From NCBI GenBank assembly GCA_029211065.1, contig JARGFK010000003.1, positions 29,111 through 93,110 of the forward strand: a stretch of DNA of 64,000 bases. The letters are read 5' to 3'. Below, in pieces: positions 36,532-51,607 of this stretch (its first letter is position 1; every line of letters starts with the position of its first letter). The stretch is from Desulfobacterales bacterium. GTDB lineage: Bacteria > Desulfobacterota > Desulfobacteria > Desulfobacterales > JARGFK01. The notes beneath the pieces were generated by a model that made no database searches, had not been told where the DNA came from, and saw nothing but the letters and a program-made list of their open reading frames with translations. Both the position numbers and the translations under genes were made by a program.

Positions 36532-36950
36532 CAACTGCTCGAATATTTCCGGTCTTTTATAGCGGTTGTCAAAAAAACGTCCCGTTACCCCAATGTTTTT
36601 TCTACAACCGCTTATACCGCAATTCATTGTTTCGGAACTTTATTATGGAAAGCGGTATAGGCCCGCTCTAACTGTCGGTGAACGATCCTGCCTGTATCAT
36701 TCCATGTCCAAACCCGAACAGATAATGTAGTTTGATATTCGGACACCGACAGTATGATATTGATAATTATTTGAAATTTTGATACTATCTTGCAGAAATA
36801 AAATTCTGCGACACCATGCAGAAGGGAGGGAACATTTTCCGTTCTCTCAGCAAGAATCTGCCATAAAGAGCAATTTCTGGTGTTGCACTGCCGGTTTGTT
36901 AAGTCGCATCGTGCGATGCATCGAGGTGAAGGGTGTTATATTCCGAACGC

Positions 36951-38561
36951 ATGCGAGAGTTTCTTTTAGACCTGTCTAATACCAGCCGGTTTGACTTTCA
37001 GTTATGGTCCGCAGAGAAGGGACTGATATTTTCTTCTATTACTCAGTCGTCCGACAAAGACGCCGGCAACGAATTCGGTGCGTTTCATAAGAAAATCATT
37101 TGCTGCGACGGATTCCAGCAAGCCCGGTTTAAGAAAAACGGTGCTGTTTTCGGTATTCAACTGAGGAATGGAACCGATGTGATGGGTTCTTTGGTAACGG
37201 TTCTGCCAGAATTTTACGGCCGCCCGTCATTGAAAAATAAAGATTCCACGAAGCTGTCGAACATCACTGAAGTCCGGACGTTTCTCATCCATCTTGCCCA
37301 GATCGTTGGATCTCAACTGTCCAGCCAGACCGAAACCGAAAAAATGGCCGAAGAACTGGGCCGGAGTTTCGAGGACATGTATCTGTATTCCAAGATCGGG
37401 GTCCAAACCATGCCGTTGAATTTTTCGGGCAAAACACTCCGTACGCTGATTGAAGACCTCCTTGAAACGATGCGTGCGGACCTGGCTTTTGCCTGGTTTA
37501 GTGAGAATCCGGATTACAACGCCGCCATCGCATCAGGGCAGGTGTCAGATATAATTTCCGATCCGGCCGCTTTGGTAGAAGCTTTACTGAACCAAATACC
37601 CACTGCTGTGCGCGCTTCAAATGAAGAGTGTTTTATTGTCAACGATTCCGGAAATGATCCGTTATACCGGAAGCTGCACCCGCAACCCTTTCGCTTTCTT
37701 AGCGTCACCATAGAAACCAAAGATCATCTCTATGGCTGGATGGGGCTGCTTTCATTCAATATGAAAGAATTCTTCCGGCAAAGCGAATTAAAGCTTTTAA
37801 AGTCCCTGGCCTCCGCTTCGGCCGTAGCATTCGAAAACTCCCGGCTGTATTTTGAATCGCTGCAGATGGCAAAGAAGGAACGCTACGTGCGCAATATTTT
37901 TCAAAAATACGTTCCCGAAGCGGTGGCCCAAAAAATATTAGACCGGGGCGATCGCGACCTCATTACCCTGGGTGAAAAAAGGATGGTCACCCTTCTGAAT
38001 GTGGACATGCGCGGATATTCACGCATGTCTAAAAAACTGCAGAGCGAAGATGTGGTATCGGTACTCAATTATTTTTTTATGACCATGGGCTCGGCGATTT
38101 TAAAGCACAACGGCATTCTGGATAAATTCCTGGGGGACGGGATTCTGGCGGTTTTCGGTGCGCCGGTTGAAAGTGAAAACACCTCCCTCGATGCGGCCCT
38201 GGCGGCACTGGAAATGCGGGAAGAAGTTGAAAAGGTGAATGCTTTTGCCCGGGAGAACTATGGCGTATCCTTGGCCATGGGCGTCAGCATCAATACGGGT
38301 GAGGCCATCGTCGGAAATATCGGTTTTGAAAAGAAAATGGAATATACAGTCATCGGCGGCGTAGTCAACGACACGTTCCGCATTCAGGATTTTACCCGGG
38401 AAAAGCCCAACTCAATCCTGGTCAGCAAGTCAACCCACACAAAAATAAAATCTGTTATTTCTACACGATCGCTGGGCGTGAAGACACTGGGCGCCAATGA
38501 AAGCCGGATGGAGGTTTTTGAGGTGGTGGGACGGCGTGAACCGCCGGCCGGCAAAGCTTGA
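36951..38561 (+). CDS. Sensor (N-terminal module plus GAF-like) fused to a class III adenylate/guanylate cyclase
   Basis: C-terminal VTLLNVDMRGYS...FLGDGILAVFGAP...GVSINTGEAIVGNIG....YTVIGGVVN. ATG 36951 chosen by alignment with the paralogous N-terminus at 53477. The track ORF starts at GTG 36933. Confidence 0.85.
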   Translation: MREFLLDLSNTSRFDFQLWSAEKGLIFSSITQSSDKDAGNEFGAFHKKIICCDGFQQARFKKNGAVFGIQLRNGTDVMGSLVTVLPEFYGRPSLKNKDSTKLSNITEVRTFLIHLAQIVGSQLSSQTETEKMAEELGRSFEDMYLYSKIGVQTMPLNFSGKTLRTLIEDLLETMRADLAFAWFSENPDYNAAIASGQVSDIISDPAALVEALLNQIPTAVRASNEECFIVNDSGNDPLYRKLHPQPFRFLSVTIETKDHLYGWMGLLSFNMKEFFRQSELKLLKSLASASAVAFENSRLYFESLQMAKKERYVRNIFQKYVPEAVAQKILDRGDRDLITLGEKRMVTLLNVDMRGYSRMSKKLQSEDVVSVLNYFFMTMGSAILKHNGILDKFLGDGILAVFGAPVESENTSLDAALAALEMREEVEKVNAFARENYGVSLAMGVSINTGEAIVGNIGFEKKMEYTVIGGVVNDTFRIQDFTREKPNSILVSKSTHTKIKSVISTRSLGVKTLGANESRMEVFEVVGRREPPAGKA

Positions 38562-38596: not shown

Positions 38597-38692
38597 ATGC
38601 CTAAAGTTTGAAATGCCTAAAATGCCTAAATGTCTGAAACATCTGGTTCTTTAACTTTAGGCAATTTAGGCATTTTAGTTCATTTTAGGCAT
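38597..38692. repeat. 9-nt-unit inverted array, element A, between the convergent cyclase and secretin genes
   Basis: ATGCCTAAA at 38597, 38613 and 38622, with degenerate ATGTCTGAA at 38630. Core catctggttctttaac. Inverted units TTTAGGCAA 38656, TTTAGGCAT 38665, degenerate 38674, TTTAGGCAT 38684. Confidence 0.9.
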
Positions 38693-38758
38693 TTTTATAT
38701 CGCAGGGAAAAGCCGTTTTTCTCAGACCTGCCCCCCGGCTGTGTGAAGCGTTTTAAAC

Positions 38759-40192
38759 CTATTGAGGTTGATAGCCCCCCTTCTGCCGCAAATCCTTTTC
38801 AGCCTCTTTTGCTTTCTCAATGGCTTCCTGGAACTGCGGGGCACTATCTTCCAAAACCTGGGGCGTGATTAATACGATCAGCTCGGATTTGTCAATGAGG
38901 TTGCCGGTCCGGCCGAAGAGCAAACGGATGCCGGGAATATCCCCCAGACAGGGAACGCCTGCCCATGTTTCGGTTTTAGTATCCTGAATAAGGCCGGCGA
39001 TAAAAACCGTTTCTCCGTTTTTGGCCATCATCCAAGTGGTGACTTTGGTGGATTTGGTCACAGGGATTCCCTGTTCAATCGTGGCGGAAGTCAGTTCCGG
39101 CTGGACCTTGAGCAGTATGTTGTTATGGATGTCGACATACGGGGTGATGTCAAGGATGGTACCTGTATCGATGAACTGGATGGTCTCGGTGGAGATCCCC
39201 TGATTTACCGTGGTCACGACATAACCCTGCTGACCGCCGACCATGACCTTGGCCGACTTGCTGTGAATCGCCAGTATTTTGGGGGTTGAAAGGGTTTTGA
39301 CGGTGGTCTTTTCCTGCAGCGCATCGATGGCGGCCGCAAATTGATGGGTGGTTCCGGCGCCGGTTATCATGTTGGCGAAGATACCATCTCCTATGAGCGG
39401 CACAGGGGAAACCGGTGCGGTGATGGGCAAGACCGCCCGGCTGAATCCGCCGGTTCCGATCCGAACATCTCCCAGCATTTTTTCCCAGTCGACCCCCAGG
39501 GACATGTCATCGGTTAATGTGATCTCTAATATCTTGGCCTCGATCAGCACCTGTTTTGGCCGGGCATCCCAGTATCGGATCAGCGTTTCTATTTTTTTTA
39601 TGTTTTCCGGGGTGTCTTCAACGATAACCGTTTTGGTGGGTTCATGGATTTTGATCATGCGGATATTGGGGATGGCGGTCAATACCTCCTGGATCTTGTC
39701 CATATCGGCATATTCAATTTTAAATATCTCCATCTTTAGTCGTGATGCCAACGGTTCCGGTTCAACCTTGGGTTTAAATACAAAATAAACATCCCCCTGT
39801 TTATAATAGCTGAACCCGCCGGCCCGGCAAATCGAATCCAGGGCCTTGTCGAGGGGAACCCGGTAGAGGTGCACGGATACTTCTCCGGAGACGTCTTTCG
39901 CCATTACAATATTGAGCTGCTGTTGCACGGCCAGGGCTGAAAGGATTTCGCGGACATCTCTTTTGTAGAAATTCAGGATTAACAGATTTTCGCCGGCGGA
40001 TGGATCAGGGGGCGACTGTTTCGGGTTGCTGGATTCCGGATCGGCCTGTGCGGGGACGCCCGGTGCGGCGGATTGGGCCATCAGCATTGCCGGAGAGGGA
40101 AACAGCAATAGTGTGAAAAATACAATCCACAGTAAGGTTGTCTTTAGCGCTAATCCGGATAAAACCTTTAAAACTTGCTTGTTGGCATTCAT
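38759..40192 (-). CDS. pilQ: Secretin (PilQ/GspD family)
   Basis: Signal peptide, N-domains and a C-terminal secretin domain (..VPCLGDIPGIRLLFG...ELIVLITPQV). Confidence 0.85.
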   Translation of the reverse strand: MNANKQVLKVLSGLALKTTLLWIVFFTLLLFPSPAMLMAQSAAPGVPAQADPESSNPKQSPPDPSAGENLLILNFYKRDVREILSALAVQQQLNIVMAKDVSGEVSVHLYRVPLDKALDSICRAGGFSYYKQGDVYFVFKPKVEPEPLASRLKMEIFKIEYADMDKIQEVLTAIPNIRMIKIHEPTKTVIVEDTPENIKKIETLIRYWDARPKQVLIEAKILEITLTDDMSLGVDWEKMLGDVRIGTGGFSRAVLPITAPVSPVPLIGDGIFANMITGAGTTHQFAAAIDALQEKTTVKTLSTPKILAIHSKSAKVMVGGQQGYVVTTVNQGISTETIQFIDTGTILDITPYVDIHNNILLKVQPELTSATIEQGIPVTKSTKVTTWMMAKNGETVFIAGLIQDTKTETWAGVPCLGDIPGIRLLFGRTGNLIDKSELIVLITPQVLEDSAPQFQEAIEKAKEAEKDLRQKGGYQPQ

Positions 40193-40255
40193 ATCCCTAT
40201 TTCTCCATACGAACGACGCCTGATTTTTAATTTAAAATTCCCCACAGCAGCCCAA

Positions 40256-40449
40256 CTTGTCTTCGACCCGGAGGCTCATGACCGAAGGGCTCGTCGACAA
40301 GTCTTGCTGAGGGGTAACCTCATATTCCCTCTCCCTGGGGAGAGGGTCAGGGTGAGGGGTAATATAAAATCAGCTTTTGTACCCTGCAGCAACGCGGCTT
40401 GTCTTCGACCCTGAGGCTCATGACCGAGGGGCTCGTCGACATGTCTTGC
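40256..40449. repeat. Two 52-bp direct repeats flanking a REP-like GC hairpin
   Basis: Copies at 40256-40307 and 40398-40449: CTTGTCTTCGACCC[G/T]GAGGCTCATGACCGA[A/G]GGGCTCGTCGACA[A/T]GTCTTGC, 3 mismatches. Between them lies CCCTCTCCctggGGAGAGGGTCAGGGTGAGGGG (40327-40359). Confidence 0.85.
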
Positions 40450-40460
40450 CGCAGGGAGAT

Positions 40461-41012
40461 TCATTTGGCCGCGCCGGATATAACCTGAAGCACCTTTCGG
40501 TGCTTTCCCGACTCTAAATACACAGCACTGGGGGTAATCCCGACCACCTGATAATCACCGACTTTTTCCCCCAGCCGCACAAATTTATCATTAATAATGG
40601 CCAGCGGTTCGTTGCCGCCGACGACGGTCCCTTTGAGCTCCACATTGAGAGGCGGCGCCGGCGGCGCAACGACCGGTGCTTTTTCCATCGGTTTCGAAAG
40701 GACTTGGGGTTTCGGTTGAACCACCGGCTTTGGTTTCGGGGGCATCCGCAGCGGAGCGAAAATATCCCTGATATCCATTCTCAAAGGTTCCGTCAAGGCC
40801 GGCCGGGATACCCGCGGCCGTTGCGATTGGGCTGTTTTGGCTGGATCAAGATCGAACTGTGTCTGGGGGGAAGGGGTGCCGGCAACTGTAGCAGGGGTGA
40901 CCGGTTCAGTCCTTTTATGTATAAAGCGAAAATAGGCGACAACGGCCGCTACCAGCGCCAGCGCGATCACAAGGTAGAGCTTGATTTTCTCGCTATTCAC
41001 GGTCGGTATCAA
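40461..41012 (-). CDS. PilP/GspC-like pilus assembly protein (TM, Pro-rich linker, C-terminal beta domain)
   Basis: TTG start with GGAAGGAG 9 nt upstream. N-terminal TM, PPKPKPVVQPKP linker, C-terminal ELKGTVVGG..LAIINDKFVRLGEKVGDYQVVGI. Position is between the pilO-like gene and the secretin gene. Confidence 0.5.
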   Translation of the reverse strand: MIPTVNSEKIKLYLVIALALVAAVVAYFRFIHKRTEPVTPATVAGTPSPQTQFDLDPAKTAQSQRPRVSRPALTEPLRMDIRDIFAPLRMPPKPKPVVQPKPQVLSKPMEKAPVVAPPAPPLNVELKGTVVGGNEPLAIINDKFVRLGEKVGDYQVVGITPSAVYLESGKHRKVLQVISGAAK

Positions 41013-41057
41013 CCTGAAGTGCTCCTTCCCACCCCATTAGCGGCGGAATCATTAAAA

Positions 41058-41117
41058 ATGCCTAAAGTTTGAACTGCCTAAAATTAATAAAATATATGGT
41101 TCTTTCATTTTAGGCAT
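41058..41117. repeat. 9-nt-unit inverted array, element B (shortest)
   Basis: ATGCCTAAA 41058, CTGCCTAAA 41074, core ..tatggttctttca.., TTTAGGCAT 41109. Confidence 0.85.
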
Positions 41118-41132
41118 TCCCGGGTCATCCCC

Positions 41133-41675
41133 TCAGATCGCCTTGGGACGTTCGAAAACAGTAGTCGTTAATTCAACCTGGCACTGATCCGAAATTTCCT
41201 CTCTGGTGATGGTTAAAGTTTCCATGACCATGATACGATTCATTCCTTCAAGATTACGGATCAAATGAAGACTGTTGACAAAGCTTCCCTTGAACAAGAG
41301 TTTAATGGGATTTCTAAGATATATTTTATCCTGGCTGACGGGTAAGGGTTCTATGCTGATCAGGGTGATTTCATGCCGCTTCATCAAGGCATCGATCTGT
41401 TGTAATAACAATCCGATCTTACCGGTCTCCGGAATCCGTTCGTTTAAATCACTCAGTTCTTTTTTGATATCTGTCAGGTTAACCTGAAGCGTCTCCAGGT
41501 TTGTTGCCGCCAGGTTGATTTCCTTCATCTTATTTAAAAGTACGTTTCTTTCAGTTTCAAAAAAACGCTTTTTATTTGTGACATGGCGCACGGCCACAAA
41601 GCCGCATACCAGCGAAACGATAACGACGGTGATAAGGCATGCCCGGTCCAACTGTTTAATGCTTATGGTTATCAT
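41133..41675 (-). CDS. pilO: PilO-like pilus assembly protein
   Basis: N-terminal TM, coiled coil and a C-terminal ferredoxin-like part. Sits downstream of the pilN-like gene in pilMNOPQ order. Confidence 0.55.
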   Translation of the reverse strand: MITISIKQLDRACLITVVIVSLVCGFVAVRHVTNKKRFFETERNVLLNKMKEINLAATNLETLQVNLTDIKKELSDLNERIPETGKIGLLLQQIDALMKRHEITLISIEPLPVSQDKIYLRNPIKLLFKGSFVNSLHLIRNLEGMNRIMVMETLTITREEISDQCQVELTTTVFERPKAI

Positions 41676-41682
41676 GTATAGA

Positions 41683-41815
41683 ATGCCTAAAATTGAAACT
41701 GCCTAAAATGCCTAAAATTTGGAATGCCTAAAATGCCTAAGCTACAATTTGTTGTGTCCGAAATATGAGTTTCTTTAATTTTAGGCAATTTAGACATTTT
41801 AAACAATTTATGAAT
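41683..41815. repeat. 9-nt-unit inverted array, element C
   Basis: Forward units at 41683, 41699 (CTG..), 41708, 41724 and 41733 (..AAG). Core ctacaatttgttgtgtccgaaatatgagtttctttaat. Inverted units at 41780 and 41789, then two degenerate 9-mers. The core is roughly 85% identical by eye to element G. Confidence 0.9.
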
Positions 41816-41851
41816 TTTAACTATCACCCGCTGCGTTAACTCGCCCTCATA

Positions 41852-42451
41852 TCAATTGCTTTTAAACCTTGGGGTGTCACAATCAATCTGAAACTGAATA
41901 ACTTTTAACTTTGATTCCGAATCTCGGGGTGACTGAATATTCTGGGCTTCCCTGGCATATCTGAGCACCACGTTATGGAACAGCGGGGCCTCTGAGAGCC
42001 GGTTTAAAAAATTTCCGACATGGTCGTTAGACAGGGAATACCCGTAAAGTTGTAAGGCGGCGGCGACAGATTCATTTTCAGGGCTGCTGTGAATGGTCAG
42101 CCTTGTGAGCCAGGTCTGGGCATTGATAATATCCGACAATTTCAGGAGCACCTCTGAAAACGGCTGATTTGTGTTGAGCGTTCTCAGGAAAGCATCCTGC
42201 CGGCTCAACTGTTCAATTTCCTGCTGGGAAATCTTGATTTCGGCGATGGTTGCGCCCAACTGGATATGCATGTCCTCGAGGGTTGTCTTCGGACGGTTTT
42301 TCAGCAGCACCGCATGGAGTTGGTATTGATAAAATCCGAAAATCAGGCCCAGGGTAAGCACCAGAGAACCGGCCCATAAAAATAGGTGACGGGCGACATG
42401 TTTTTTGTAAAGCATTTCCGCTGGAATTAAATTGACTTCTCTTAAAGCCAT
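41852..42451 (-). CDS. pilN: PilN-like (fimbrial assembly) protein
   Basis: MALREVNLIPAEML..., a single TM and a coiled coil. Overlaps the pilM-like gene by 10 nt. Confidence 0.65.
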   Translation of the reverse strand: MALREVNLIPAEMLYKKHVARHLFLWAGSLVLTLGLIFGFYQYQLHAVLLKNRPKTTLEDMHIQLGATIAEIKISQQEIEQLSRQDAFLRTLNTNQPFSEVLLKLSDIINAQTWLTRLTIHSSPENESVAAALQLYGYSLSNDHVGNFLNRLSEAPLFHNVVLRYAREAQNIQSPRDSESKLKVIQFQIDCDTPRFKSN

Positions 42452-43575
42452 GTCACTTTCCGCAATGCGAGTCCGAGAGCCAGAGAAAAGGATGCACCCC
42501 TGTCCGTATCCGGGAGCTGTCTACCGTCCGCCATGTTCAGTTTTAGTATCGGGTTTATCGATTCCGTCGGAATACCGAGGTGAGCTTCCAGGTACCGGTC
42601 CAGTGCCCCCACCGAATTTACCTGACCGTACAAAAAGATTTTTTCAAAGCGGATGCCCGATTGATTCGATCGGGCATAACCGAAAATCTGGTAAAGTTCA
42701 TGAACCAGCACATCCACATACGGCGACAGAATCTGGAAAAGCGTCCGGTAAATTTCGATGCCGTCTCCCGACCTTCCATTTTTGCCGTTTCCCGAATCGA
42801 CAGGTTGCTGAATGTGATCGTCATACCTGAGGCCATACATTGCAAGCATCTCGGCTGACTGATGGCTGTCACTGGGGAGTTCAAGGTTGGTCTCCAGTCG
42901 ATTGAAAAGCCCCTGTATGCCCCAAGTCGTCGTTCGTCTCGCCAGGATGCTGTCTTTGGTAACGATGGCGATCAGGGTCTGGCGCTGCCCGATATTGCAT
43001 AAAACAACCGGTTCATCGCCCAGGGGATATAGATAATGGTGCAGCCGCAGAAGGGATGACAGGTCAAAATCGATCGTTTCGGCCGAAAGGCCGGCCCGTT
43101 TCAGCAGCCGGACATGGCGATCAATCTGGTCGCGGTGGGCAGAGATAATATAGGCTTTAAACCTTTGCTTTTCCTCGGAGGGAACTTCGATCAGGCTGGA
43201 ATAATCGATGATAGCATTTTCAAGAGAAAAAGAGAGATGCTTACGACACTCCCGGGCAATCGCCATGTCGATGGTTTCCCCGGCATCGATCCTGAAAGAT
43301 ATCGGAAAACAATTCAAATGTCTGGCGGGAAGATGGATGGCCGCCCGTTTGCCGCGAAACCGTTTGTTTTTAGCGGCTGCTTTTAAAGCGGAAATGAGGG
43401 TGACCTCCCATTCCGGACTGTCCGTCTGCTGTTCGTTCAATTTCCAATAAAATAAGTCGCGTACCGCCGGCCCCTGCCGGGTTTGTTGGAATTGGGCGGC
43501 ATAGACATGCCGATCGTCGATGTCAATGCCGATGGGGTATGTTTCGTTATGTCCAAGCATGATGTTACTGTCCAA
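42442..43575 (-). CDS. pilM: PilM-like actin-fold pilus assembly protein
   Basis: IGIDIDDRHVYAAQF..., ~370 aa, directly upstream of the pilN-like gene. Confidence 0.7.
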   Translation of the reverse strand: MDSNIMLGHNETYPIGIDIDDRHVYAAQFQQTRQGPAVRDLFYWKLNEQQTDSPEWEVTLISALKAAAKNKRFRGKRAAIHLPARHLNCFPISFRIDAGETIDMAIARECRKHLSFSLENAIIDYSSLIEVPSEEKQRFKAYIISAHRDQIDRHVRLLKRAGLSAETIDFDLSSLLRLHHYLYPLGDEPVVLCNIGQRQTLIAIVTKDSILARRTTTWGIQGLFNRLETNLELPSDSHQSAEMLAMYGLRYDDHIQQPVDSGNGKNGRSGDGIEIYRTLFQILSPYVDVLVHELYQIFGYARSNQSGIRFEKIFLYGQVNSVGALDRYLEAHLGIPTESINPILKLNMADGRQLPDTDRGASFSLALGLALRKVTWL

Positions 43576-43666
43576 ATTGATCTAAAACAGTTGAAATGTC
43601 AATTCCTTTGTATGTGTCTTTCACACCGAGTTCGGCAAACGGGCTTCCCTTTCTGCTCTATTATTG

Positions 43667-45073
43667 TTATTTTCTGGCCCAGGCCAAAGACTCATAAGAA
43701 ATATTAAGCTTGTTGACCTCATCATCTTTGCCCAACTGATATCCATCGTCCAGCAGCAGTTGAATGTGGTTGGTTGTGTTCACTTTACTGCTAAAATACA
43801 TGGATTCATCCGCATTTTTGTCGATGGAAGCGGTGCGGTGAATCATGAATCTACCTGCCGATACGGCTCGAACAATGACATATTCGGGCTTGAATCCCAA
43901 ACCGGTCACATTGCGGTTGTCCTGACCGTCGCCCCCATGTCCGCCGAACTGCTGCTGGCCGGCGATGTTGGGCCAGCACACATAGTGGTAGATCACCCCG
44001 TTTTTGTTTACGCGATCATCGCTGCCCAACCGGAAGCCGTCAAACGGAACCGGCGTCGTCAGGCAGTTGCCCTGTCCCTGGCCGTTGCCAAAGTTAAACG
44101 AGAGGTCGGAATAATTGGACCGGTGCATGACCTCGTGATTCTCCTCAGACAGGACGATGATCAGCTCGGGCTGAAATCCGCCCAGCCCGCTGATGACCCG
44201 GCCGCCGGCGCCGTCACCCGTGTAGGTCCCCACTTTCATTTCTCCGGCAACGGCCCTGAATGCCGCCCAGTAATAAATTGTGCCGCCTTTGTTGACCCGC
44301 CAACCGTTTCCCACCGTAAAGCCTGTGGCATCCAGAGACTGTATCAAATTGCTCAAAATCCCAACGGATCCCACCATGGGTTTGGCGCTCTCGCCGCTCA
44401 TGGTCGCAGTGCGGATGATCCCTTCTGTCCCGTAATCCGCCGCCTTGATAATGACCACATCCGGCTGAAAGCCTACGTTCGTGATGGGGCGGTTGTCCGT
44501 TCCATCGCCCATATAAGCCCCTGTGATCATTTGTTGCGGCCCCGATTTTATGTACATCACATAACTTTGGTGCACCACATTGTCGCCCACAACTCCCACG
44601 GTGGCTACAGCGGCAAAGGTGGTATTCGTGTGCACCCTGACCTTGTAGCCGTAACGGCCTCCGCCCAGATCATGCATGTAATAGACGGTCGGGTCGGCCA
44701 GCGAACCCGGGTCGTTGAGCAGCCGCCACAGGGCATGGTCGGCCGCGGCTTCGGCCAGATAATCGGCCTGCATGCCGCTCAGCCGGTTGGCCGTCGCCTT
44801 TGTCAGGGTGCCGGCCTTGAAGAGAAACGCCATGGCCAGGGTGGACATAATTGCCAGGAGTACGAGGATGGCGACGTAGGCGAGGCCGGATTGGGGGAAG
44901 TGCCTGGAAAAGAAATGCCTAAAATGCCTAAAATGAGCTAAATTGCCTACACGGAATGAAATGCCTAAATTGCCAAAAATGCCAAAAATGCCTAAAATTG
45001 CAGATCGTAGACAATTTGCCGTTTGCTTGAAAAATGTAAGTTCATTTGAGTTCATTTTTGGCATCTTTAGCAT
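43667..45073 (-). CDS. PilX/GspK-like pseudopilin: N-terminal hydrophobic helix plus three ~95-aa tandem repeats. The first ~60 codons of the ORF are encoded by repeat element D.
   Basis: QSGLAYVAILVLLAIMSTLAMAFL...QADYLAEAAADHALWRLL is PilX_N/GspK-like. Repeats lie at about aa 183-277, 278-372 and 373-468, with signature G.Y.GDG...R.[IV]..[LV]GF[QK]P[DE]..I[IV]. The only in-frame ATG/GTG/TTG upstream of the helix are at 45073, 45064 and 45055, inside element D. Confidence 0.65.
   Translation of the reverse strand: MLKMPKMNSNELTFFKQTANCLRSAILGIFGIFGNLGISFRVGNLAHFRHFRHFFSRHFPQSGLAYVAILVLLAIMSTLAMAFLFKAGTLTKATANRLSGMQADYLAEAAADHALWRLLNDPGSLADPTVYYMHDLGGGRYGYKVRVHTNTTFAAVATVGVVGDNVVHQSYVMYIKSGPQQMITGAYMGDGTDNRPITNVGFQPDVVIIKAADYGTEGIIRTATMSGESAKPMVGSVGILSNLIQSLDATGFTVGNGWRVNKGGTIYYWAAFRAVAGEMKVGTYTGDGAGGRVISGLGGFQPELIIVLSEENHEVMHRSNYSDLSFNFGNGQGQGNCLTTPVPFDGFRLGSDDRVNKNGVIYHYVCWPNIAGQQQFGGHGGDGQDNRNVTGLGFKPEYVIVRAVSAGRFMIHRTASIDKNADESMYFSSKVNTTNHIQLLLDDGYQLGKDDEVNKLNISYESLAWARK
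44915..45073. repeat. 9-nt-unit array, element D, containing a plus-strand remnant of a four-helix-bundle gene 5' end
   Basis: Units at 44915, 44924, 44933 (deg.), 44942 (deg.), 44961, 44970 (deg.), 44979 (deg.) and 44988. Then ATT GCA GAT CGT AGA CAA TTT GCC (I A D R R Q F A), compared with I V E R K Q F A in the intact gene. Inverted units TTTTGGCAT 45056 and CTTTAGCAT 45065. Confidence 0.9.
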
Positions 45074-45107
45074 TACTCATTTCCCTTTTCAGCCATTTTG
45101 GATCGGG

Positions 45108-45482
45108 TCATTTTCTTCTTCCGATGGAAGTAAAAATAGCAAGCAATTCGCTGCATTCTTCATACAGGGGTTTCACCTTTTCCCATGCCATCCATCCGGC
45201 TTCAACGATGACTTCCAGCCAATACTGAGTTTCGCTGGCTTCACTTTCGCAAATTTTTATTTTGTTTTTAAAATCAGCCCGGCTCCTTGACCGGTTGGCC
45301 TCACGGTAGTTTGCGCCGATGGAGGTTCCGGATTTGGCAATCTGGGTTCGAATCACCGTGCACTCAGGCGTATTGTACAGTGTGGATGATAAACGGATTA
45401 TTTGCACGGCAAATATGCGCGTGCGCTTCTCAAGGTCTTTGGCAAATTGCTTTCGCTCAACAATTTTAGGCATTTCAGGCAT
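45108..45482 (-). CDS. Four-helix-bundle protein (23S rRNA intervening-sequence protein / Avd family, PF05635-like)
   Basis: 124 aa. ...FAVQIIRLSSTL......IAKSGTSIGANYREANRSRSRADFKNKIKICESEASETQYWLEV... is the family core (GANI.EA, F..K..I...E..ET.YWL). The first codons, ATG CCT GAA ATG CCT AAA, are repeat units. Confidence 0.85.
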   Translation of the reverse strand: MPEMPKIVERKQFAKDLEKRTRIFAVQIIRLSSTLYNTPECTVIRTQIAKSGTSIGANYREANRSRSRADFKNKIKICESEASETQYWLEVIVEAGWMAWEKVKPLYEECSELLAIFTSIGRRK

Positions 45483-45535
45483 TTTAGGTCTTTCACACCA
45501 TTTTAGTCATTTTTAATTTTAGGCACTTTAGGCAT
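45465..45535. repeat. 9-nt-unit array, element E. All units are in TTTAGGCAT orientation and overlap the start of the four-helix-bundle gene.
   Basis: TTTAGGCAT 45465, TTCAGGCAT 45474, TTTAGGTCT 45483, degenerate units 45492-45517, TTTAGGCAC 45518, TTTAGGCAT 45527. Confidence 0.9.
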
Positions 45536-45540
45536 TTTCT

Positions 45541-46431
45541 TTACCTCACCCTCTTGCCGGTTTTCTGAAAGACGTTTCTGGGGCAGACATATTCTGTAAA
45601 CGTAGCGCTTTCTCCGTTATCGCCAGTAAGAGATAGGGTAATGCGTATCCGTTCCGGGGCTTCGAAAAAGGCCTCGAAGTTGGTCACGTGATCCGACAAG
45701 ACCACCTTGGGTGCAGAACCCAATATGCCTGTGACAGGGTCGGAATGTATTTCAGTAAGGGTTTTAGCAGCAGAATTATACAAATACACTGCGAAAAGAA
45801 CCACCTCCTCGTTTTTAAGCCCGTCCTCATCATCATCACTATCCTCACCTACTCCTTCGTCCACCTGTCCATCACCATCATCATCTATACCCTTAATACC
45901 GTAGGCACCGTCCTGGTTCATATCTTTCGTCACGTTCTCGTCGATATTCCCGTCCAAATCATTGTCTAACCCATCAAACTTGTCTTCACCAGTGAGTCCA
46001 TCTTCATCATCATCAGATTGTTGTCCTTCATCAAACAGCTCATCACCGTCTTCATCGACGCCCCGGATGCCGTAGCCGCCCGATGAAAAATAATCATGCG
46101 TATCTTCATCGATGCGTGGAAATAAAGGGTTCCCCCACGCCCCGAAGTAGAAGTCACCGTCGGTGTTGACCAAACGGGAAAATGCCAGGATGTCTCGCGA
46201 GGGTTTGCGGTTGTTGGGAACCGTAAGGAAGGTTGTTTTTTTAGCTCCAGCGGTCATGCGTTCAATGGCCAGCAGGCCTTCCTGATAAAGCCGGGAGCGG
46301 GCGATGCCGCTGCGGTGGGCATCCAGGCTGCTGGAAAGAAGGGGGGTGGCCACCGCGGCAATGATCAGCAAAATGGTGACGGTAATCAGCAACTCCATCA
46401 GGGTCAGGCCGTTTTCACCGCATTTCCTCAT
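45541..46431 (-). CDS. Prepilin-type minor pilin/pseudopilin with a large acidic, Ca-binding-like insertion
   Basis: N-terminal GLTLMELLITVTILLIIAAV (prepilin cleavage/methylation type). Residues about 106-208 are Asp/Glu-rich, with duplicated YGI[RK]G[VI]D[ED]DGD...DEG...SDDDEDGL. Confidence 0.7.
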   Translation of the reverse strand: MRKCGENGLTLMELLITVTILLIIAAVATPLLSSSLDAHRSGIARSRLYQEGLLAIERMTAGAKKTTFLTVPNNRKPSRDILAFSRLVNTDGDFYFGAWGNPLFPRIDEDTHDYFSSGGYGIRGVDEDGDELFDEGQQSDDDEDGLTGEDKFDGLDNDLDGNIDENVTKDMNQDGAYGIKGIDDDGDGQVDEGVGEDSDDDEDGLKNEEVVLFAVYLYNSAAKTLTEIHSDPVTGILGSAPKVVLSDHVTNFEAFFEAPERIRITLSLTGDNGESATFTEYVCPRNVFQKTGKRVR

Positions 46432-46856
46432 GTTATCTTCCCCACTCTGCCTTCGTTATCGACCCGGATGGTTGTCAGGGAATGATTGGGCCGCTGGGTG
46501 ACGGACACCGTTATCCGGACCGCGGAGGGTTCCGGAATCGTGTTGCCGTCCAGATCCACCGGCACAACCGTCCAGGTGATGGTAAAACTCTGTCCGTTGA
46601 CGGTGACCGTCTCGAAGCTGCTGCTGAGGGATCCGAAGTTGGTGCTCACAAGCTCTTCCATCTTGCTGCGCAGGCGGCTGTCCAGGAGCATGGATTCGGC
46701 CTGCGCGTCCAGGGCCTGGAATCCGGAAATATAGGGAGCTGAAATCCCCACAGCCACAATCGCCAGGAGAGCCACCGCGATCAGGGCTTCTATGAGGGTG
46801 AAGCCGGTGGGGGATTTTAGGAGGTTAACAAATGTATAAGTTCTTTTGGGAAACAT
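46428..46856 (-). CDS. Prepilin-type minor pilin (PilV/GspI-like)
   Basis: ..SPTGFTLIEALIAVALLAIVAV.. N-terminal methylation motif. ATGA overlap with the next gene. Confidence 0.75.
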   Translation of the reverse strand: MFPKRTYTFVNLLKSPTGFTLIEALIAVALLAIVAVGISAPYISGFQALDAQAESMLLDSRLRSKMEELVSTNFGSLSSSFETVTVNGQSFTITWTVVPVDLDGNTIPEPSAVRITVSVTQRPNHSLTTIRVDNEGRVGKIT

Positions 46857-46864
46857 GGTAAAAA

Positions 46865-47029
46865 ATGCCTAAAGTTTGGAATGCCTAAAATGCCTAAAGT
46901 TTGCAAATGCCTAAAGTTTGTAAATGCCTAAGATGCCTAAAATTTGGAGATCTGGTTTCATGGTCTATGGCAAACTGTTTTCGTTCGTCCATTTTAGGCA
47001 ATTTAGGCATTTCAGCTCATTTTAGGCAT
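46865..47029. repeat. 9-nt-unit inverted array, element F, containing a minus-strand remnant of a four-helix-bundle gene 5' end
   Basis: Forward units at 46865, 46881, 46890, 46907, 46924 (..AAG) and 46933. Inverted units at 46993, 47002, 47011 (deg.) and 47021. Minus strand 47010->46948 reads ATG CCT AAA TTG CCT AAA ATG GAC GAA CGA AAA CAG TTT GCC ATA GAC CAT GAA ACC AGA TCT (MPKLPKMDERKQFAIDHETRS). Compare MPEMPKIVERKQFAKDLEKRT in the intact gene. Confidence 0.9.
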
Positions 47030-47037
47030 TTGTTCTT

Positions 47038-47616
47038 CTATCCACTCACACTCACCCTCCCGGTGAGCGCATTTAAAGTCACCACCTTCTGACGGCCGCC
47101 AAAGGTCAATGTGACCGTTCCGCCTATGGAAGGGGTCCCGGTGGAATCAAAGGTGACCGGGGTGTCGAAGCCCGATGCGTTGATGTCCACGCCGCTGAAG
47201 CGGCTTTCATTGGGAAAGGTGATGGTATAGTCGATGCCCTTGTTCATGGGGTTTCCCAGATAGGCATAACTGCCGTTTTCCACTTCCGCCGCGGTATACG
47301 AGCCAGCACCGCCCAGCAGGTTTACGTTGGGTTTGAATTGTTTGACGTCGATCTTTTTGGTGGTTGCGCTGATGGTGACCTGGGTTTGCTGGCCGGTGAC
47401 TGCGGTGAGCTGCGCGAATTCCAGAGCGTTGACGATTTCTTCGGCGGCAGTCCCCAGGCGGTAATCCCCCATGAACGCATTGATCGCCGGCCAGCCCAGC
47501 ATGGTAAAAATCGATACGATCAGCAGGACGATGAGTAGTTCAAAAAGCGTGAACCCGTCCCTCCGGCGGCGTTTCAGTCGGCATGCTAAAAGGCTGTCTG
47601 CTATCTGGTGTTTCAT
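47038..47616 (-). CDS. GspH/FimT-family pseudopilin
   Basis: ..RRDGFTLFELLIVLLIVSIF.. prepilin motif; ~190 aa. Confidence 0.75.
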   Translation of the reverse strand: MKHQIADSLLACRLKRRRRDGFTLFELLIVLLIVSIFTMLGWPAINAFMGDYRLGTAAEEIVNALEFAQLTAVTGQQTQVTISATTKKIDVKQFKPNVNLLGGAGSYTAAEVENGSYAYLGNPMNKGIDYTITFPNESRFSGVDINASGFDTPVTFDSTGTPSIGGTVTLTFGGRQKVVTLNALTGRVSVSG

Positions 47617-47868
47617 TGGTCATTCATTCATGGAAAAAATATTGATAAAAAATATGGAAACGGGCAGAGGCACACCCGATGCAGCATGAGGTGGGGCATA
47701 CACGGCCATGATCCGCTGGACGGTCAATTGGCTGCAGGGATAACCGCCGCCGATCAAAGCGGAAACCTCGGAACGGTTCATCCCACTGATACAATTTCAG
47801 ACAATGACAGCGGATAGCATCGCACCGACAGGGAGCAACGATACCCGTCTCTTTCAACTTAAGCTGAA

Positions 47869-48405
47869 TCAATAAGTGCCGCTGGTCGCACTGTCATTGG
47901 CGATAAAAACACCCATTTTGACATAGAATTTCCAGCCCGTGCCGTCGGCAGGGGTTGCCGCGCGGAGGGCAAGATCGATTGTAGTGATATCGCAAGTGAC
48001 CGCACTAGATTCATTGTAGGGGTTTTGCGGAAGGGTCGCGGTCTTGAGATACGGGCCGAATATTGGTGCGGTCAATGTGCTCTTATCGCTAGATGTTTTA
48101 CCGTCCAACTGCGAGTAATAAATCAGCTGATCGGTGAAGGCGGCGGGCAGGTCGGCCGCCACCGTGGCCGTGCCGCTACCGTCAATCTTTACAGCCCCGG
48201 GGTAGACATTGTTATGCTGATGGTAGTAAAGCTCGATGGCGTTGCGGATCGTACTCAAGTTGGTTCTCATGGTGCTCAACCGGGCTTCGCCCGTTGAGAC
48301 ATTGATTTGCGGGATGATGATCATTGCCAGGATGCCCAGGACAATAACGACAATAAGCATTTCGATCAACGTAAATCCGGCTTCTTTTCTGAATGGTATT
48401 TTCAT
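47869..48405 (-). CDS. Major pilin / pseudopilin (GspG/PilA-like, prepilin-type N-terminus)
   Basis: MKIPFRKEAGFTLIEMLIVVIVLGILAMIIIPQ. AAGGAGAG lies 7 nt upstream of ATG 48405. First pilin gene after pilC. Confidence 0.8.
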   Translation of the reverse strand: MKIPFRKEAGFTLIEMLIVVIVLGILAMIIIPQINVSTGEARLSTMRTNLSTIRNAIELYYHQHNNVYPGAVKIDGSGTATVAADLPAAFTDQLIYYSQLDGKTSSDKSTLTAPIFGPYLKTATLPQNPYNESSAVTCDITTIDLALRAATPADGTGWKFYVKMGVFIANDSATSGTY

Positions 48406-48527
48406 TGCCCGACTCTCCTTTACATACCTCATGGCTAAAGGGTTAACAAATCATTATAACTTGATTTAATAACGTTTCATCTCTTGATTGCGGCTGCTTA
48501 GACAGGATCTGCTTCAGCGATCCGAAA

Positions 48528-49679
48528 TTACCGCAATGCCTGGGACAACCGGAACAACGGAAGGATGATGGACGATACGATCACCCCCACGACGGCACCC
48601 ATGATAATCAATGCGATCGGTTCGATCCGGGCGGCAAATTTTTTGAGTTCCTGTTCGATCTCTGTATCATAAAACGCGGCCAGACGCAACATTACGTAGG
48701 GCAGTCTGCCGGTTTCCTCGCCGATGACCACCATCTGTTTCACCGTCCGGGGAATATAGGGGTTTGCGGAAAACGGCAGGGAAAATCGTCCGCCGCGATC
48801 CACGCTATCGCTGATTTCATCCAGAAAGCGGCGATAATAGCGATTCCAGATGGTGGGGCGGGTTGCCTTGAGCGCTTCCAGCAAGGGGACCTGGCTTTCC
48901 ATCAAGTGCCCGATGGTCCGGAGCATTTCACAGGTATAAATCTTGTTCGTTAGTCCGGAAATTAACGGCCCGCTGACGAGCAGTCGATCTCGCAATGCCC
49001 GGCCCGGCGGGCTTTTCAGCCAGAGGGTCACGCCCGTCACCGCGCCGCAGGCAAAAAGAGAATACGCCCACCAGTGATGCCGCAACGTTTCGCTGGCCAT
49101 CATAAGGAAACGCGTGGTCCAGGGCAGGATGCTCTCTTTGCCGGCAAAAAAAGCGGCGAATTTCGGCAGCACTCCGACCAGGATAAACACGACCACTCCA
49201 AATCCGATAACGCACAGGAAAGCGGGGTAGGTCAGGGCCAGTTTGACTTGATTGATCATCGCCAGACGCTTTTCCTGCATCTCGACAATCCGGTCCAGGG
49301 TTTTATTCAAAAAACCGCCGGTTTCCCCCGCCTTTACCATGCTGGTGAACTGGTCGTTGAAAATCCGGGGGTGAAGCTTCATGCTTTCGGACAGCTGCCG
49401 GCCTTCCTCAATATCCCGGGATATGGCTGAGATGACTGCTTTAAATGACGGATGTTGAATCTCCTCAGCGATGGTCTGGAGGGCAACATTAATGGGGGTA
49501 TCCACCGCCAGCATGAGGGAAAGCTGGGTTGTGAAAAACATCACCTCGCGGGAACTGATCCGGTTGAACAAGCGGTCGGTGATCCCCCGGGCAAACGCTT
49601 GGTTCAACCGCGCCGCCGGCAGCGGCCGCAGAGCCGTTTGGGGTTCAAGTATTTCTTCCGGTTTGAATTGTATGGCCAT
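48528..49679 (-). CDS. pilC: Type IV pilus / T2SS platform protein (PilC/GspF family)
   Basis: 383 aa with two T2SSF repeats and 3 TM segments (..GETGGFLNKTLDRI.. and ..GEETGRLPYVMLRLA..). Confidence 0.9.
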   Translation of the reverse strand: MAIQFKPEEILEPQTALRPLPAARLNQAFARGITDRLFNRISSREVMFFTTQLSLMLAVDTPINVALQTIAEEIQHPSFKAVISAISRDIEEGRQLSESMKLHPRIFNDQFTSMVKAGETGGFLNKTLDRIVEMQEKRLAMINQVKLALTYPAFLCVIGFGVVVFILVGVLPKFAAFFAGKESILPWTTRFLMMASETLRHHWWAYSLFACGAVTGVTLWLKSPPGRALRDRLLVSGPLISGLTNKIYTCEMLRTIGHLMESQVPLLEALKATRPTIWNRYYRRFLDEISDSVDRGGRFSLPFSANPYIPRTVKQMVVIGEETGRLPYVMLRLAAFYDTEIEQELKKFAARIEPIALIIMGAVVGVIVSSIILPLFRLSQALR

Positions 49680-49687
49680 AATCTAAA

Positions 49688-49818
49688 ATGCCTAAAATGC
49701 CTGAAATTGAAAATGCCTAAAGGTGAAAATGCCTAAAATGCCTGACCTGCAATTTCTTGTGTCAGTAATATGTGTTTCTTTAATTTTAGGCAATTTAGGC
49801 ATTCATCAGTTTAGGTAT
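49688..49818. repeat. 9-nt-unit inverted array, element G, between pilB and pilC
   Basis: Forward units at 49688, 49697 (..GAA), 49713, 49729 and 49738 (..GAC). Core ctgcaatttcttgtgtcagtaatatgtgtttctttaat. Inverted units at 49785, 49794 and 49810 (deg.). Confidence 0.9.
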
Positions 49819-49897: not shown

Positions 49898-51607
49898 TCA
49901 AAGCTCCAGCGATACAGCCCGATGGACCTCCTCTATGGTCGTAAGATTTTGCAGGACGCGCTGATATCCTGCCTGCTCCAGGGTGGTGTATCCGCTTTCC
50001 GTGCATTGTTTTTTTATGGCCGCGATGGTCGGATTCTGCAGGATTAAAGCCCGCAGGCCCTGATCGATCGCCAAGAGTTCATGGATGCTGGTCCGCCCCT
50101 TGTAACCGGAATCATAACAGTCCGGACATCCCTTGCCTTTATACAAACGCAGCCGTTTGTCTTCATCAACTCCCAGCTCCTTGAGTACACTTGCAGGGGG
50201 GAAGTAGGCTGTCTTACACTCGGGACAGATGGTTCGCACCAGCCGCTGGGACATGCAGGCAATCAGGGACGAGGAAAGGAGATAGGGCTCCACGCCCATT
50301 TCCAAAAGTCGCGTGACGGCGCTGGGGCTGTCGTTGGTATGCAGGGTTGAAAGCACCAGATGGCCTGTGAGGGATGCCTGGATGGCAACTTCGGCTGTTT
50401 CGCGGTCACGGATTTCACCCACCATGATGATGTCCGGGTCCTGGCGCAGCGTGTGCCGGATAAAGGTGGCAAATTTCATGCCCAGAGCCGTATGGACCTG
50501 GGTTTGATTGATATTCTCCAACTGATATTCCACCGGATCTTCAACGGTGACGATATTTCTTTCGGTGGTATTGAGCAAGGTGATGGCCGAATACAGGGTG
50601 GTGGTCTTGCCGCTGCCGGTGGGCCCGCAGACCAGAATCAATCCATGAGATTTCCGCAGGAAAGATTTGAATTGATCAAGAATTACAGGTTCAAAACCGA
50701 GGGCATTGAGATCCAGAATGGTTTTGCGCTTATCGAGGATTCGCAGAACCACTTTTTCACCATGAACCCCTGGCATGGATGAAAACCGGAGATCAATGGT
50801 TCGCCCCAGGGCTCTGATCTGAAAGCGGCCGTCCTGGGGCATGCGTCGTTCGGAGATGTTCAGGTTTGCCAGTACTTTCAATCGGGAAACCACCGTGGGA
50901 TGCATCGCTATATTCTGGGGTTTCAATTCGTAGAGAATTCCGTCGATCCGCAGCCGGATCCGCAGTTTGTCCTCCTGAGGTTCGATATGGATATCGCTGG
51001 CTTCGTCCTTGATGGCTTTCAGCAGAATCATGTTCACCAGGTTGATGACCGGACTTTCCTTGGCCTTGTCAGACATTTCGCTGATGTCTATTTCCGGACG
51101 GGCCTCGATCACATCGATACCGGACTCGCTGTCATTGACCATGAAATCTTCGATGGTGATATTCTCCTGATAGGCCTGAGATATCGCCGCTAAAATATCC
51201 TCGACGCGACAGATGACCGGTTGGACTTCCATTTTAGTCAATTTTTTTACTTCATCAATGACAAAAAAGGCATAAGGGTCGGATACCGCCAGCGTCAAGA
51301 CGTTGTTGACGACAAACATCGGAATAACCTGGTGGTAGAGCGCCTTTTCTTTGGGCAGAACATGGACGACTTTCGGGTCTATCAGCCCTTTGCGTAGCCA
51401 GACATGCGGGATGCCGAGCTGTTCTCCCAGGATTTTTACCAGGTCTTCATTGGATATAATCCCTTTTTCGACAACAATCTGGCCGAGGGACTTGGCGGTT
51501 TCCTTTTGGTGCCGGAGAAATTCAGCCAGTTGATCAGGCGAGAGGAGTCCTTGCTGGATCAGAATTTCACCCAGCTTCCTTCTTTTGGGTATCAGGGTGG
51601 TTTTCAT
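49898..51607 (-). CDS. pilB: Type IV pilus / T2SS assembly ATPase (PilB/GspE/MshE family) with an MshEN-type N-terminal domain
   Basis: GPTGSGKTTT Walker A, Asp/His boxes, C-terminal CPECK...CPDC tetracysteine. The N-terminus carries two 24-aa MshEN-like motifs. Confidence 0.9.
   Translation of the reverse strand: MKTTLIPKRRKLGEILIQQGLLSPDQLAEFLRHQKETAKSLGQIVVEKGIISNEDLVKILGEQLGIPHVWLRKGLIDPKVVHVLPKEKALYHQVIPMFVVNNVLTLAVSDPYAFFVIDEVKKLTKMEVQPVICRVEDILAAISQAYQENITIEDFMVNDSESGIDVIEARPEIDISEMSDKAKESPVINLVNMILLKAIKDEASDIHIEPQEDKLRIRLRIDGILYELKPQNIAMHPTVVSRLKVLANLNISERRMPQDGRFQIRALGRTIDLRFSSMPGVHGEKVVLRILDKRKTILDLNALGFEPVILDQFKSFLRKSHGLILVCGPTGSGKTTTLYSAITLLNTTERNIVTVEDPVEYQLENINQTQVHTALGMKFATFIRHTLRQDPDIIMVGEIRDRETAEVAIQASLTGHLVLSTLHTNDSPSAVTRLLEMGVEPYLLSSSLIACMSQRLVRTICPECKTAYFPPASVLKELGVDEDKRLRLYKGKGCPDCYDSGYKGRTSIHELLAIDQGLRALILQNPTIAAIKKQCTESGYTTLEQAGYQRVLQNLTTIEEVHRAVSLEL

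Follow-up and report, generated by a model that had tools for sequence, protein, structure and literature searches.

Inverted arrays of a 9-nt unit in a Desulfobacterales type IV pilus cluster as probable termini of a selfish cassette of the rRNA intervening-sequence type

Introduction

How did seven intergenic gaps of one operon come to carry the same array of a short repeat? The question is raised by a 64,000-nt stretch of a Desulfobacterales genome (contig JARGFK010000003.1, positions 29,111 to 93,110 of the forward strand; hereafter the window), in which a run of minus-strand genes forms a type IV pilus / type II secretion system (T2SS)-like cluster and the gaps between these genes are filled or almost filled by arrays of a 9-nt unit (ATGCCTAAA in one orientation, TTTAGGCAT in the other). 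A first-pass annotation of the sequence named the arrays A to G and left three candidate roles for them: selfish DNA resembling miniature inverted-repeat transposable elements (MITEs), control of pilus subunit stoichiometry, and binding sites for a four-helix-bundle (4HB) protein encoded among them. We conclude that the seven arrays are probably the termini of a selfish cassette that carries the 4HB gene and is of the same type as the intervening sequences (IVSs) of rRNA genes, present as one intact copy and six gene-less or partial ones, and multiplied within the pilus operon.

Results and Discussion

The repeat units are confined to gaps of the pilus cluster

An exact search of the whole window found 27 units, 19 on the plus strand and 8 on the minus strand, which are the numbers that had been estimated by hand, and all of them lie within 38597-49802. 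Dinucleotide-preserving shuffles of the window contained 0.71 ± 0.88 units and never more than 3. No exact copy was present in the 53 kb of the window beyond the pilus cluster, as the first-pass annotation had noticed. With one mismatch allowed, 61 units were found against 18 expected, and the surplus was confined to the identical seven gaps. Arrays occupy 7 of the 11 real gaps within or ending the cluster and 0 of about 50 gaps elsewhere in the window; the coordinates and layout first proposed for them, including the gap assigned to F, were confirmed (Table 1).

Units follow each other directly or at distances of 6-8 nt, and both orientations are represented; two of the three reading frames of the unit are open, and it includes ATG and AGG. 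Five of the arrays (A, B, C, F, and G) are miniatures of 60-165 nt with inverted unit arrays and a predicted duplex of about 22-50 bp, the smallest of them, B, consisting of two or three units, a short core and one inverted unit. F is located between the GspH-like and 142-aa pilin genes, whose gap it fills. The cores of C and G, judged by eye to be about 85% identical, proved to be about 88% identical and thus form one subfamily; both match the element at the G site of L122 (L-numbers denote sequence loci of relatives or other organisms that were compared with the window). The earlier claim that every element folds into a hairpin held against shuffled sequences for A, C, D, F, and G, while B was weak and E formed no hairpin alone. 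PilC, PilO, and the 142-aa pilin gene each have an array end 7-8 nt from the start codon, and the ribosome-binding regions of all three are indeed inside elements, as had been proposed; for C and G the distances, first given as 8 and 9 nt, are 7 and 8 nt.

Several familiar kinds of repeat were considered and rejected. On inspection, GG and GC are spaced 8 nt apart in tandem units, against the 10 nt of a sigma-54 promoter. A CRISPR (clustered regularly interspaced short palindromic repeats) array would have repeats of 25-40 nt with unique spacers of similar length, and not contiguous or closely spaced 9-nt units in both orientations. DNA uptake sequences (DUS, or uptake signal sequences, USS) occur roughly once per kb genome-wide, against zero exact copies in the 53 kb outside the cluster. 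Operators of a pilus regulon would be restricted to the co-regulated genes and conserved along with them, whereas arrays are found in unrelated operons and are missing from sister pilus clusters.

Arrays E and D are the arms of one cassette around a PF05635 gene

Between E and D lies an apparently intact gene for a 4HB protein of 124 aa, a member of the PF05635 / 23S_rRNA_IVP / S23p family (Pfam match 6e-19 with 98 of 106 profile positions covered; 6.9e-20 against PDB entry 2rld). With this protein as the one query, at least 7991 homologous clusters at 90% identity were found. Read in the sense of the gene, E is a run of (A/G)TGCCTAAA-type units, that is, a ATGCCTAAA-type run, and its last units provide the start codon of the open reading frame (ORF; MPEMPKIVERKQFAK..., translated MPEMPKIVERK...). 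An inverted repeat of 48 nt (I1, 44973-45020 with 45441-45488, 81% complementary) takes in the first eight codons of the ORF. D can be divided accordingly into inverted units (44915-44996), an inverted copy of the first eight 4HB codons (44997-45020), and degenerate units directly after the 4HB stop codon (45053-45074; repeats I11 and I12).

The predicted RNA has an interrupted terminal stem of about 91 bp around the ORF (45545-45431 with 45029-44906), and the 633-nt stretch from D to E (44908-45540) folds with a z-score of -7.3 relative to shuffles. Because of the 48-nt inverted repeat and this predicted stem, we read E and D as the two arms of one cassette; as the repeat reaches into the start of the ORF, the cassette can fold as a long stem around its gene. 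E had been regarded as a separate element; this no longer holds, as E forms the 5' arm and D the 3' arm of a single cassette. The suspected link between the arrays and the neighboring 4HB protein is real, yet it is a structural one, the arrays being the terminal inverted repeats of the gene.

The miniatures can be derived from this cassette. Array F retains ATGGACGAACGAAAACAGTTTGCC between its arms, which encodes MDERKQFA, the N-terminus of the 4HB protein, and F is therefore an internally deleted copy. A, B, C, and G are shorter, gene-less versions of the same cassette.

Homologous pilus clusters have filled, empty, and decayed sites

A PilC-based metagenome scan yielded 41 homologous clusters. 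The nearest relatives of the window are metagenome-assembled genomes labelled Desulfobacterales; L121, L122, L123, and L143 (PilC identity 80-95%) have arrays in matching gaps, and L123 contains, at the site matching that of the window, a 4HB gene truncated to 56 aa. The pilB-pilC gap, which holds G in the window, is filled in L121, L122, and L123, contains a decayed 4HB gene in L016 (interrupted, between arrays) and L128 (strongly deleted), and is empty in L124, L125, L126, L129, and L130. Orthologous clusters with empty sites had been suggested as a check, and these five provide them. The F site is filled in L123, L143, L129, and L160, and the C site, between PilN and PilO, carries an array in L123. 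In a PilC tree, arrays were restricted to one upper clade and patchy inside it, while about 25 deeper loci had none.

The clearest comparison is that of L128, filled at the pilB-pilC gap, with L129 and L126, which are empty there while their flanks are 95-97% identical. The L128 insert is 93% identical to an element 2.5 kb downstream within that cluster; with a near-identical relative empty, this marks it as a recent copy made within the L128 cluster. Copies also decay: in the liu-like operon described below (L178), a 5'-truncated 4HB gene is fused to a host stop codon via an 8-nt microhomology (GGTGCTAA). Among the roles first proposed, MITE-like selfish DNA fits these filled and empty sites, decayed copies and the recent within-cluster copy best.

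Other small repeats were seen inside the elements. A second, unrelated repeat (GTCATTCCCGCGAAGGCGGGAATCCAG ... GGCATGACG) is nested in 9-nt-unit elements of L121 (7130-7270) and L016 (2745-2830), and in L016 it disrupts the 4HB gene. A third nested insert (CCCTGGCCCAGACCGATCACC ... CGCGCCAGGGCGGGC) lies in the 3' part of 4HB cassettes in L129 (13230-13370, minus strand) and L176 (10330-10470), that is, in two different operons and lineages. In L037 (1245-1300), about seven tandem copies of GGTTCARA stand between two inverted sets of 9-nt units, downstream of a 4HB gene.

The elements also occupy unrelated operons

The pattern used for a genome scan, two adjacent units, was found in at least 120 loci in 596 Gb of sequence. 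About 170 chance hits are to be expected for this pattern, so many of the loci are noise, and we used only those with at least three units or with 4HB or pilus homologs present. Among the loci listed, about 48 come from metagenome-assembled genomes of Desulfobacterales or "delta proteobacterium," often several per genome, and 74 contain clusters of at least three units. Composite elements adjoin dnaX (one site in two genomes), ilvB/ilvN, oppD/oppF, mutS2/dnaG, parB, hemA, dctP/Q, and cysK. The genes flanking such dispersed copies are co-directed in 14 of 17 cases, and the elements frequently stop 6-9 nt ahead of a start codon. The first-pass annotation had tied the elements to the pilus cluster; this tie does not hold, as the same arrays are found in housekeeping and catabolic operons of other Desulfobacterales.

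A second hot-spot became apparent in contigs sampled through close 4HB homologs, namely a liu-like catabolic operon with up to two 4HB genes plus solo arrays. The 4HB genes stand at up to three gap positions, and some genomes have solo arrays where others carry the 4HB gene; L176 has three 4HB genes in 20 kb. The accumulation of copies in a single operon is therefore characteristic of the family.

A striking concentration in a pilus cluster was nevertheless seen in the window and, beyond it, in three or more further lineages. Of three long contigs first picked by 4HB similarity alone, two turned out to be homologous pilus clusters (L174 and L172). L174 has the synteny of the window. L172 is a distantly related cluster with an intact 4HB cassette in the PilN-PilO gap and, in 20 kb, seven arrays with 35 exact units; its PilM is 34% identical to that of the window, its 4HB protein 81%. 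As the element is far better conserved than the host cluster, independent colonization of such operons or horizontal spread into them is suggested.

PF05635 genes of other phyla carry their own inverted arrays

For an independent sample, the 4HB protein was compared by tblastn with plasmids of cultured organisms, which gave 31 records, of which 12 were analyzed (L181-L192: Planktothrix, Chlorohelix (two), Bernardetia, Nostoc, Pseudanabaena, Anabaena, Gloeocapsa, Treponema, Monoglobus, Chondrinema, and Euhalothece, from the phyla Cyanobacteriota, Chloroflexota, Bacteroidota, Spirochaetota, and Bacillota). All 12 plasmid-borne PF05635 genes have tandem units upstream and inverted copies of them downstream. 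The units differ among the 12 and are 7-9 nt long (AATCCCC/AATCGTA, ATGAAGG, GTAAAAA, ATTTTAG, GGAAAGW, CCAGTGA, and others). Local inverted-repeat scores were 26-61 for the PF05635 genes, compared to a median of 17 and a maximum of 29 for 52 control genes of the window (Mann-Whitney p = 3.6e-8). In 9 of 12 cases the gene is co-directed with both neighbors. A like layout was observed in the scan loci L086 (units AATTACGAA and AAATTGTTAAATGGG), L007, L094, and L098.

The neighbors of the plasmid-borne genes include helicase/methylase, cas2/cas1, csx2/cas1, DUF1156/Swt1-HEPN, hsdS/hsdR, and the adaptor and permease of a resistance-nodulation-division (RND) system, and PF05635 genes in defense operons occur in cultured cyanobacteria, Chloroflexota, and Bacillota. 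PF05635 has been listed as CRISPR-associated (PMC3936711); siting in defense operons may explain such calls.

A probable selfish cassette and its relation to known systems

The interpretation as a selfish cassette is built on points that we regard as established: the anatomy of the cassette, the derivation of miniatures from it, gain and loss at given sites, local copying, decay by deletion, the presence in unrelated operons, and the generality of the layout among PF05635 genes. A complete copy would consist of a run of 9-nt units, the PF05635 ORF, and inverted units. New copies would land mostly nearby in the same operon, and since copies would arise mostly within one operon, they would pile up as seen in the pilus cluster. 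Decay by deletion would then leave solo hairpins in intergenic gaps. Cassettes and host genes would tolerate each other, and the end of an element can replace a lost start codon or ribosome-binding region, because the unit has open frames, an ATG, and an AGG. The 4HB protein probably recognizes its own units.

Several observations weigh against this interpretation or fail to help it. No transposase, recombinase, or reverse transcriptase domain was detected by Pfam in the genes scanned (the 13 cluster genes, five regulatory neighbors, and the 40 largest of the 48 remaining window ORFs), and PF05635 itself is no known transposase. In the single clean filled/empty pair, L128/L129, no target-site duplication was visible, and about 12 nt differ there. 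The ends of A, B, C, and G are too symmetric to fix their orientation relative to the host genes. Local copying accounts for the pile-up within a lineage; it does not obviously account for the recurrence at pilus clusters between lineages. Finally, the equal folding of both strands described below neither backs nor rules out cutting by RNase III.

The first-pass annotation knew of no described repeat family with this structure. The S23p-type IVSs of rRNA genes are equal in layout (PMC4990558), and the short tandemly repeated repetitive (STRR) sequences of cyanobacteria are close analogues. The IVS in the 23S rRNA gene of Coxiella burnetii is a selfish element of 428 nt with an S23p ORF, two to three tandem GACAGAT units (the number being strain-dependent) upstream of the start codon, and a 28-bp terminal stem within which RNase III cleaves; its describers cite an older idea that the ORF serves mobility (PMC4990558). 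The IVSs of Coxiella burnetii, Leptospira, and Brucella share with the window cassette the ORF family, the tandem repeats before the start, and the stem around the ORF, and in both the ORF often decays while the stem persists, mobility having long been suspected for the IVSs (PMC4990558). The rRNA IVSs lie in helix 25 or 45 of the 23S rRNA, whereas the window cassette stands between protein genes of an operon (a minor-pilin gene and the gene of the DUF7483 protein). The elements in the window also differ from them in the 9-nt unit, the longer arrays, the many gene-less miniatures, and the several copies in one operon. Excision by RNase III is a property of rRNA IVSs; for the window elements duplexes are predicted, of 22-50 bp in the miniatures and 91 bp in the full copy.

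The STRRs resemble the arrays in being tandem short units in intra-operon gaps that are often opposed, are hairpin-capable, and abut start codons; their units are of 7 nt and belong to heterocystous or filamentous cyanobacteria, against 9 nt in Desulfobacterales. The STRR heptamers have been described as intergenic and hairpin-forming, with their function given as unknown (PMC2670836), and the protein that binds the start-codon heptamers of Nostoc is "yet to be identified" (10.1101/2022.06.06.494920). No literature linking STRRs to PF05635 genes was found. The same was true of literature linking PF05635 genes outside rRNA to flanking repeat arrays, subscription journals being outside our coverage. 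The Planktothrix 4HB gene of our plasmid sample is flanked by arrays of AATCCCC, which corresponds to the STRR1 unit CCCCAAT reported by Mazel et al. (1990). A further analogue are the TAACTGA arrays of marine Beggiatoaceae, intergenic "forward" heptamers which stop a few bases before start codons; in contrast to the window elements these are nearly all direct, with one inverted set reported and no ORF described (PMC4679880).

With MITEs and with REPINs (hairpin-forming pairs of repetitive extragenic palindromic, REP, sequences) the miniatures have much in common: they are short and non-coding, have inverted termini shared with a longer coding element from which they derive by internal deletion, are intergenic, present or absent at given sites, and sometimes nested. 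The parent here encodes a 124-aa 4HB protein and no recognizable transposase, and its termini are arrays of 9-nt units in place of a single terminal repeat; a target-site duplication, as said, was not seen.

Avd proteins of diversity-generating retroelements bind nucleic acid and work with a reverse transcriptase. Neither a reverse transcriptase nor a template or variable repeat lies near the 4HB gene of the window, and to our knowledge Avd genes have not been described with bounding inverted unit arrays. The resemblance of PF05635 to Avd lies in a homologous fold and family (PMC10053308).

Alternative explanations

The arrays could instead be recombination or inversion sites that shuffle pilus modules and thereby produce phase or antigenic variation, which we consider unlikely. 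In its favor, L129 (13296-21080) and L160 (2870-8270) show 100% identity as far as the element that follows the 142-aa pilin gene and opposite orientation beyond it, which implies an inversion of at least 8 kb with its ends in elements. In L174 (3252-8868) the segment from GspH to DUF7483 is inverted relative to PilBC and PilMNO, again with breakpoints in elements. The minor pilins of L123 (55-64% identity, compared to 93% for PilB) have diverged faster than their neighbors. However, such inversions are perhaps mere by-products of homologous recombination between repeats, or errors of assembly at palindromic repeats; the contig name and the frameshifted genes of L174 suggest a long-read assembly. 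A recombinase gene is absent nearby, and the family fills operons in which variation would be without obvious value.

A second possibility, to which we give slightly less credit, is that of ordinary REP/REPIN or MITE repeats moved in trans by a RAYT (REP-associated tyrosine transposase) or DDE enzyme, with the 4HB gene as a frequent passenger. That no mobility enzyme, a RAYT included, was found in the cassette or the 64-kb window agrees with it, as do the numerous gene-less copies and the different inner box, GGAGCGAAGCGACACC, of some miniatures. This conserved box stands beside one arm in many miniatures of other genomes (L008, L028, L033, L054, L108, L128 at 9860-9885, and L129) and was absent from the 4HB-bearing copies viewed; it could be the mark of a second subfamily or of another cargo since lost. 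A mere passenger, however, would not be expected to have its own distinct inverted unit arrays in 12 of 12 sampled genes from five other phyla, or to have the inverted repeat enter its ORF and the units supply its start codon. That no target-site duplication was visible in the one clean pair also counts against it.

It is improbable that the arrays are cis-regulatory operators or iterons to which the 4HB protein binds, setting the transcription or translation of pilus subunits. Their concentration in the cluster, at the ribosome-binding regions of several pilus genes, and the arrays in homologous pilus clusters of other lineages would suit such a role, and units that vary between 4HB lineages would be expected for protein-specific recognition. 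Operators of this kind should not, however, recur in the dnaX, ilvBN, oppDF, and liu-like operons, be present or absent between near-identical clusters, or contain remnants of the 4HB gene in their miniatures; sister clades with like pilus genes are, moreover, entirely array-free. That the arrays are promoters or terminators giving each pilus gene its own transcription unit is highly improbable: three tandem units do create (T/A)TGCCT, a 17-nt spacer, and TAAAAT, and 24 promoter-like sites (13.8 ± 3.7 expected) include several in arrays, but the hexamers, with their poor -35 matches, are weak and point both inward and outward, terminator-like sites are missing from all arrays (16 in the window, 17.6 expected), and polymorphism and gene remnants argue for an origin as mobile elements.

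Possible effects on host genes and transcripts

An effect of the cassette on a host protein is suggested at the DUF7483 gene. In the element-free ortholog L137, the protein starts MEKLRANIIAMRSEAG-VGYVAILV. In the window (44861-45073), L123 (6650-6760), and L160 (4860-4990), the sole in-frame start lies in or before the 3' arm of the cassette, upstream of the conserved SG-(L/M)AY(V/M)AIL; in L123 this ATG and the 4HB stop codon overlap as ATGA, and in the window the ORF reads through D, with the leader ..HFRHFRHF..SG-LAYVAILV. As there is no other in-frame start upstream of the conserved part, this prepilin-like leader would be translated from the inverted units; judged from the sequence, DUF7483 appears to have lost its native start and to have its leader supplied by the element. 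The first-pass annotation had pointed out that the 9-nt period keeps one frame open, (Met-Pro-Lys)n. Of such coding potential we find two uses: at the 4HB start codon and, apparently, in the DUF7483 leader.

On the pilus transcript each element would probably form an imperfect duplex and be cut by RNase III, by analogy with the rRNA IVSs, splitting the operon mRNA. The sense strand folded more stably in 15 of 30 elements (p = 0.80); with sense and antisense folding equally well, nothing hints at selection on the RNA, and the proposal that the elements control pilus subunit stoichiometry gains no support. The elements sit on ribosome-binding sites, apparently provide a leader peptide, and delimit two or more inversions; they may therefore influence how the cluster is expressed and rearranged.

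A wider class of cassettes?

We tentatively raise the possibility, itself rather doubtful, that PF05635 genes with inverted 7-9-nt arrays are widespread, so far unrecognized operon-invading cassettes of which the rRNA IVSs were the first to be noticed. Each protein would then recognize its own unit, be it DNA or RNA, and help the cassette to be copied or maintained; the STRRs and the start-codon heptamers of Nostoc would be arms or footprints of such cassettes; and the association of PF05635 with CRISPR-Cas and defense loci would be hitch-hiking, not function.

PF05635 is still termed "functionally uncharacterized" (PMC11270868). If 4HB genes are viewed as cargo carried by hairpin-bounded cassettes, a concrete hypothesis follows for this very large family, namely that its members bind their own units. 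If true, the rRNA IVSs become one case of a broader class, and an origin is offered for intergenic short-tandem-repeat arrays, a puzzle since about 1990. For annotation, caution is advised: where a PF05635 gene is met in a pilus operon, or separates cas1 from cas2 or hsdS from hsdR, it has probably been inserted there and is not a subunit.

Gene content of the pilus cluster and its surroundings

The features of the cluster are listed in Table 1. Upstream of PilB lie genes for STAS, GAF-HD-GYP, response-regulator, and histidine-kinase proteins.

Table 1. Repeat arrays, cassette, and genes of the pilus cluster, in window positions (z, hairpin stability relative to dinucleotide shuffles).
Feature	Position	Strand	Remarks
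Full cassette, 640 nt	44906-45545	-	E arm, 4HB ORF, D arm
Array A	38597-38692		Miniature; 3' of secretin gene, 3' end of cluster, convergent genes; z -9.2, 38 bp paired
Array B	41058-41117		Smallest miniature; gap between PilO and 183-aa protein gene; z -2.2
Array C	41683-41815		Gene-less miniature; PilN-PilO gap, 7 nt from PilO ATG; z -4.6
Array D	44915-45074	-	3' arm of full cassette; z -3.6
Array E	45465-45535	-	5' arm of full cassette; z +0.45, no hairpin alone
Array F	46865-47029	-	Internally deleted cassette; gap 46857-47037; z -5.7, 50 bp paired
Array G	49688-49818		Gene-less miniature; pilB-pilC gap, 8 nt from pilC ATG; z -4.5
PilB	49898-51607	-	
PilC	48528-49679	-	
Major pilin	47869-48432	-	
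GspH-like gene	47038-47616	-	
Two minor pilins	46428-46856 and 45541-46431	-	
PF05635 (4HB) gene	45108-45482	-	
DUF7483 protein gene	43667-45073	-	Coordinates of the ORF
PilM, PilN, PilO, then 183-aa protein gene		-	After DUF7483 in transcription order
Secretin	38759-40192	-	Last in transcription order

The longest array-free gap in the cluster is the 252-nt gap between the GspH-like and pilin genes (47617-47868). No Rfam family reached its gathering score anywhere in the window, and no rRNA was found. ARAGORN predicted no tRNA near the arrays; its sole call in the window, a 93-nt "tRNA-???" with undefined anticodon (47804-47896, minus strand), overlaps the 3' end of the pilin gene and is probably a false positive.

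Paralogous sensor modules flank the pilus cluster on both sides (36933-38561, plus strand, and 51981-53513, minus strand). Over about 340 N-terminal residues, in which a GAF domain lies, the two are 34% identical (E = 2e-56); this shared part is joined to an adenylate/guanylate cyclase domain in one of them and to an HD domain of the HD-GYP type in the other. Among the control genes, a Crp/Fnr-type regulator gene (32414-33097, minus strand) was the single one with a raised flanking inverted-repeat score (29, z 4.8).

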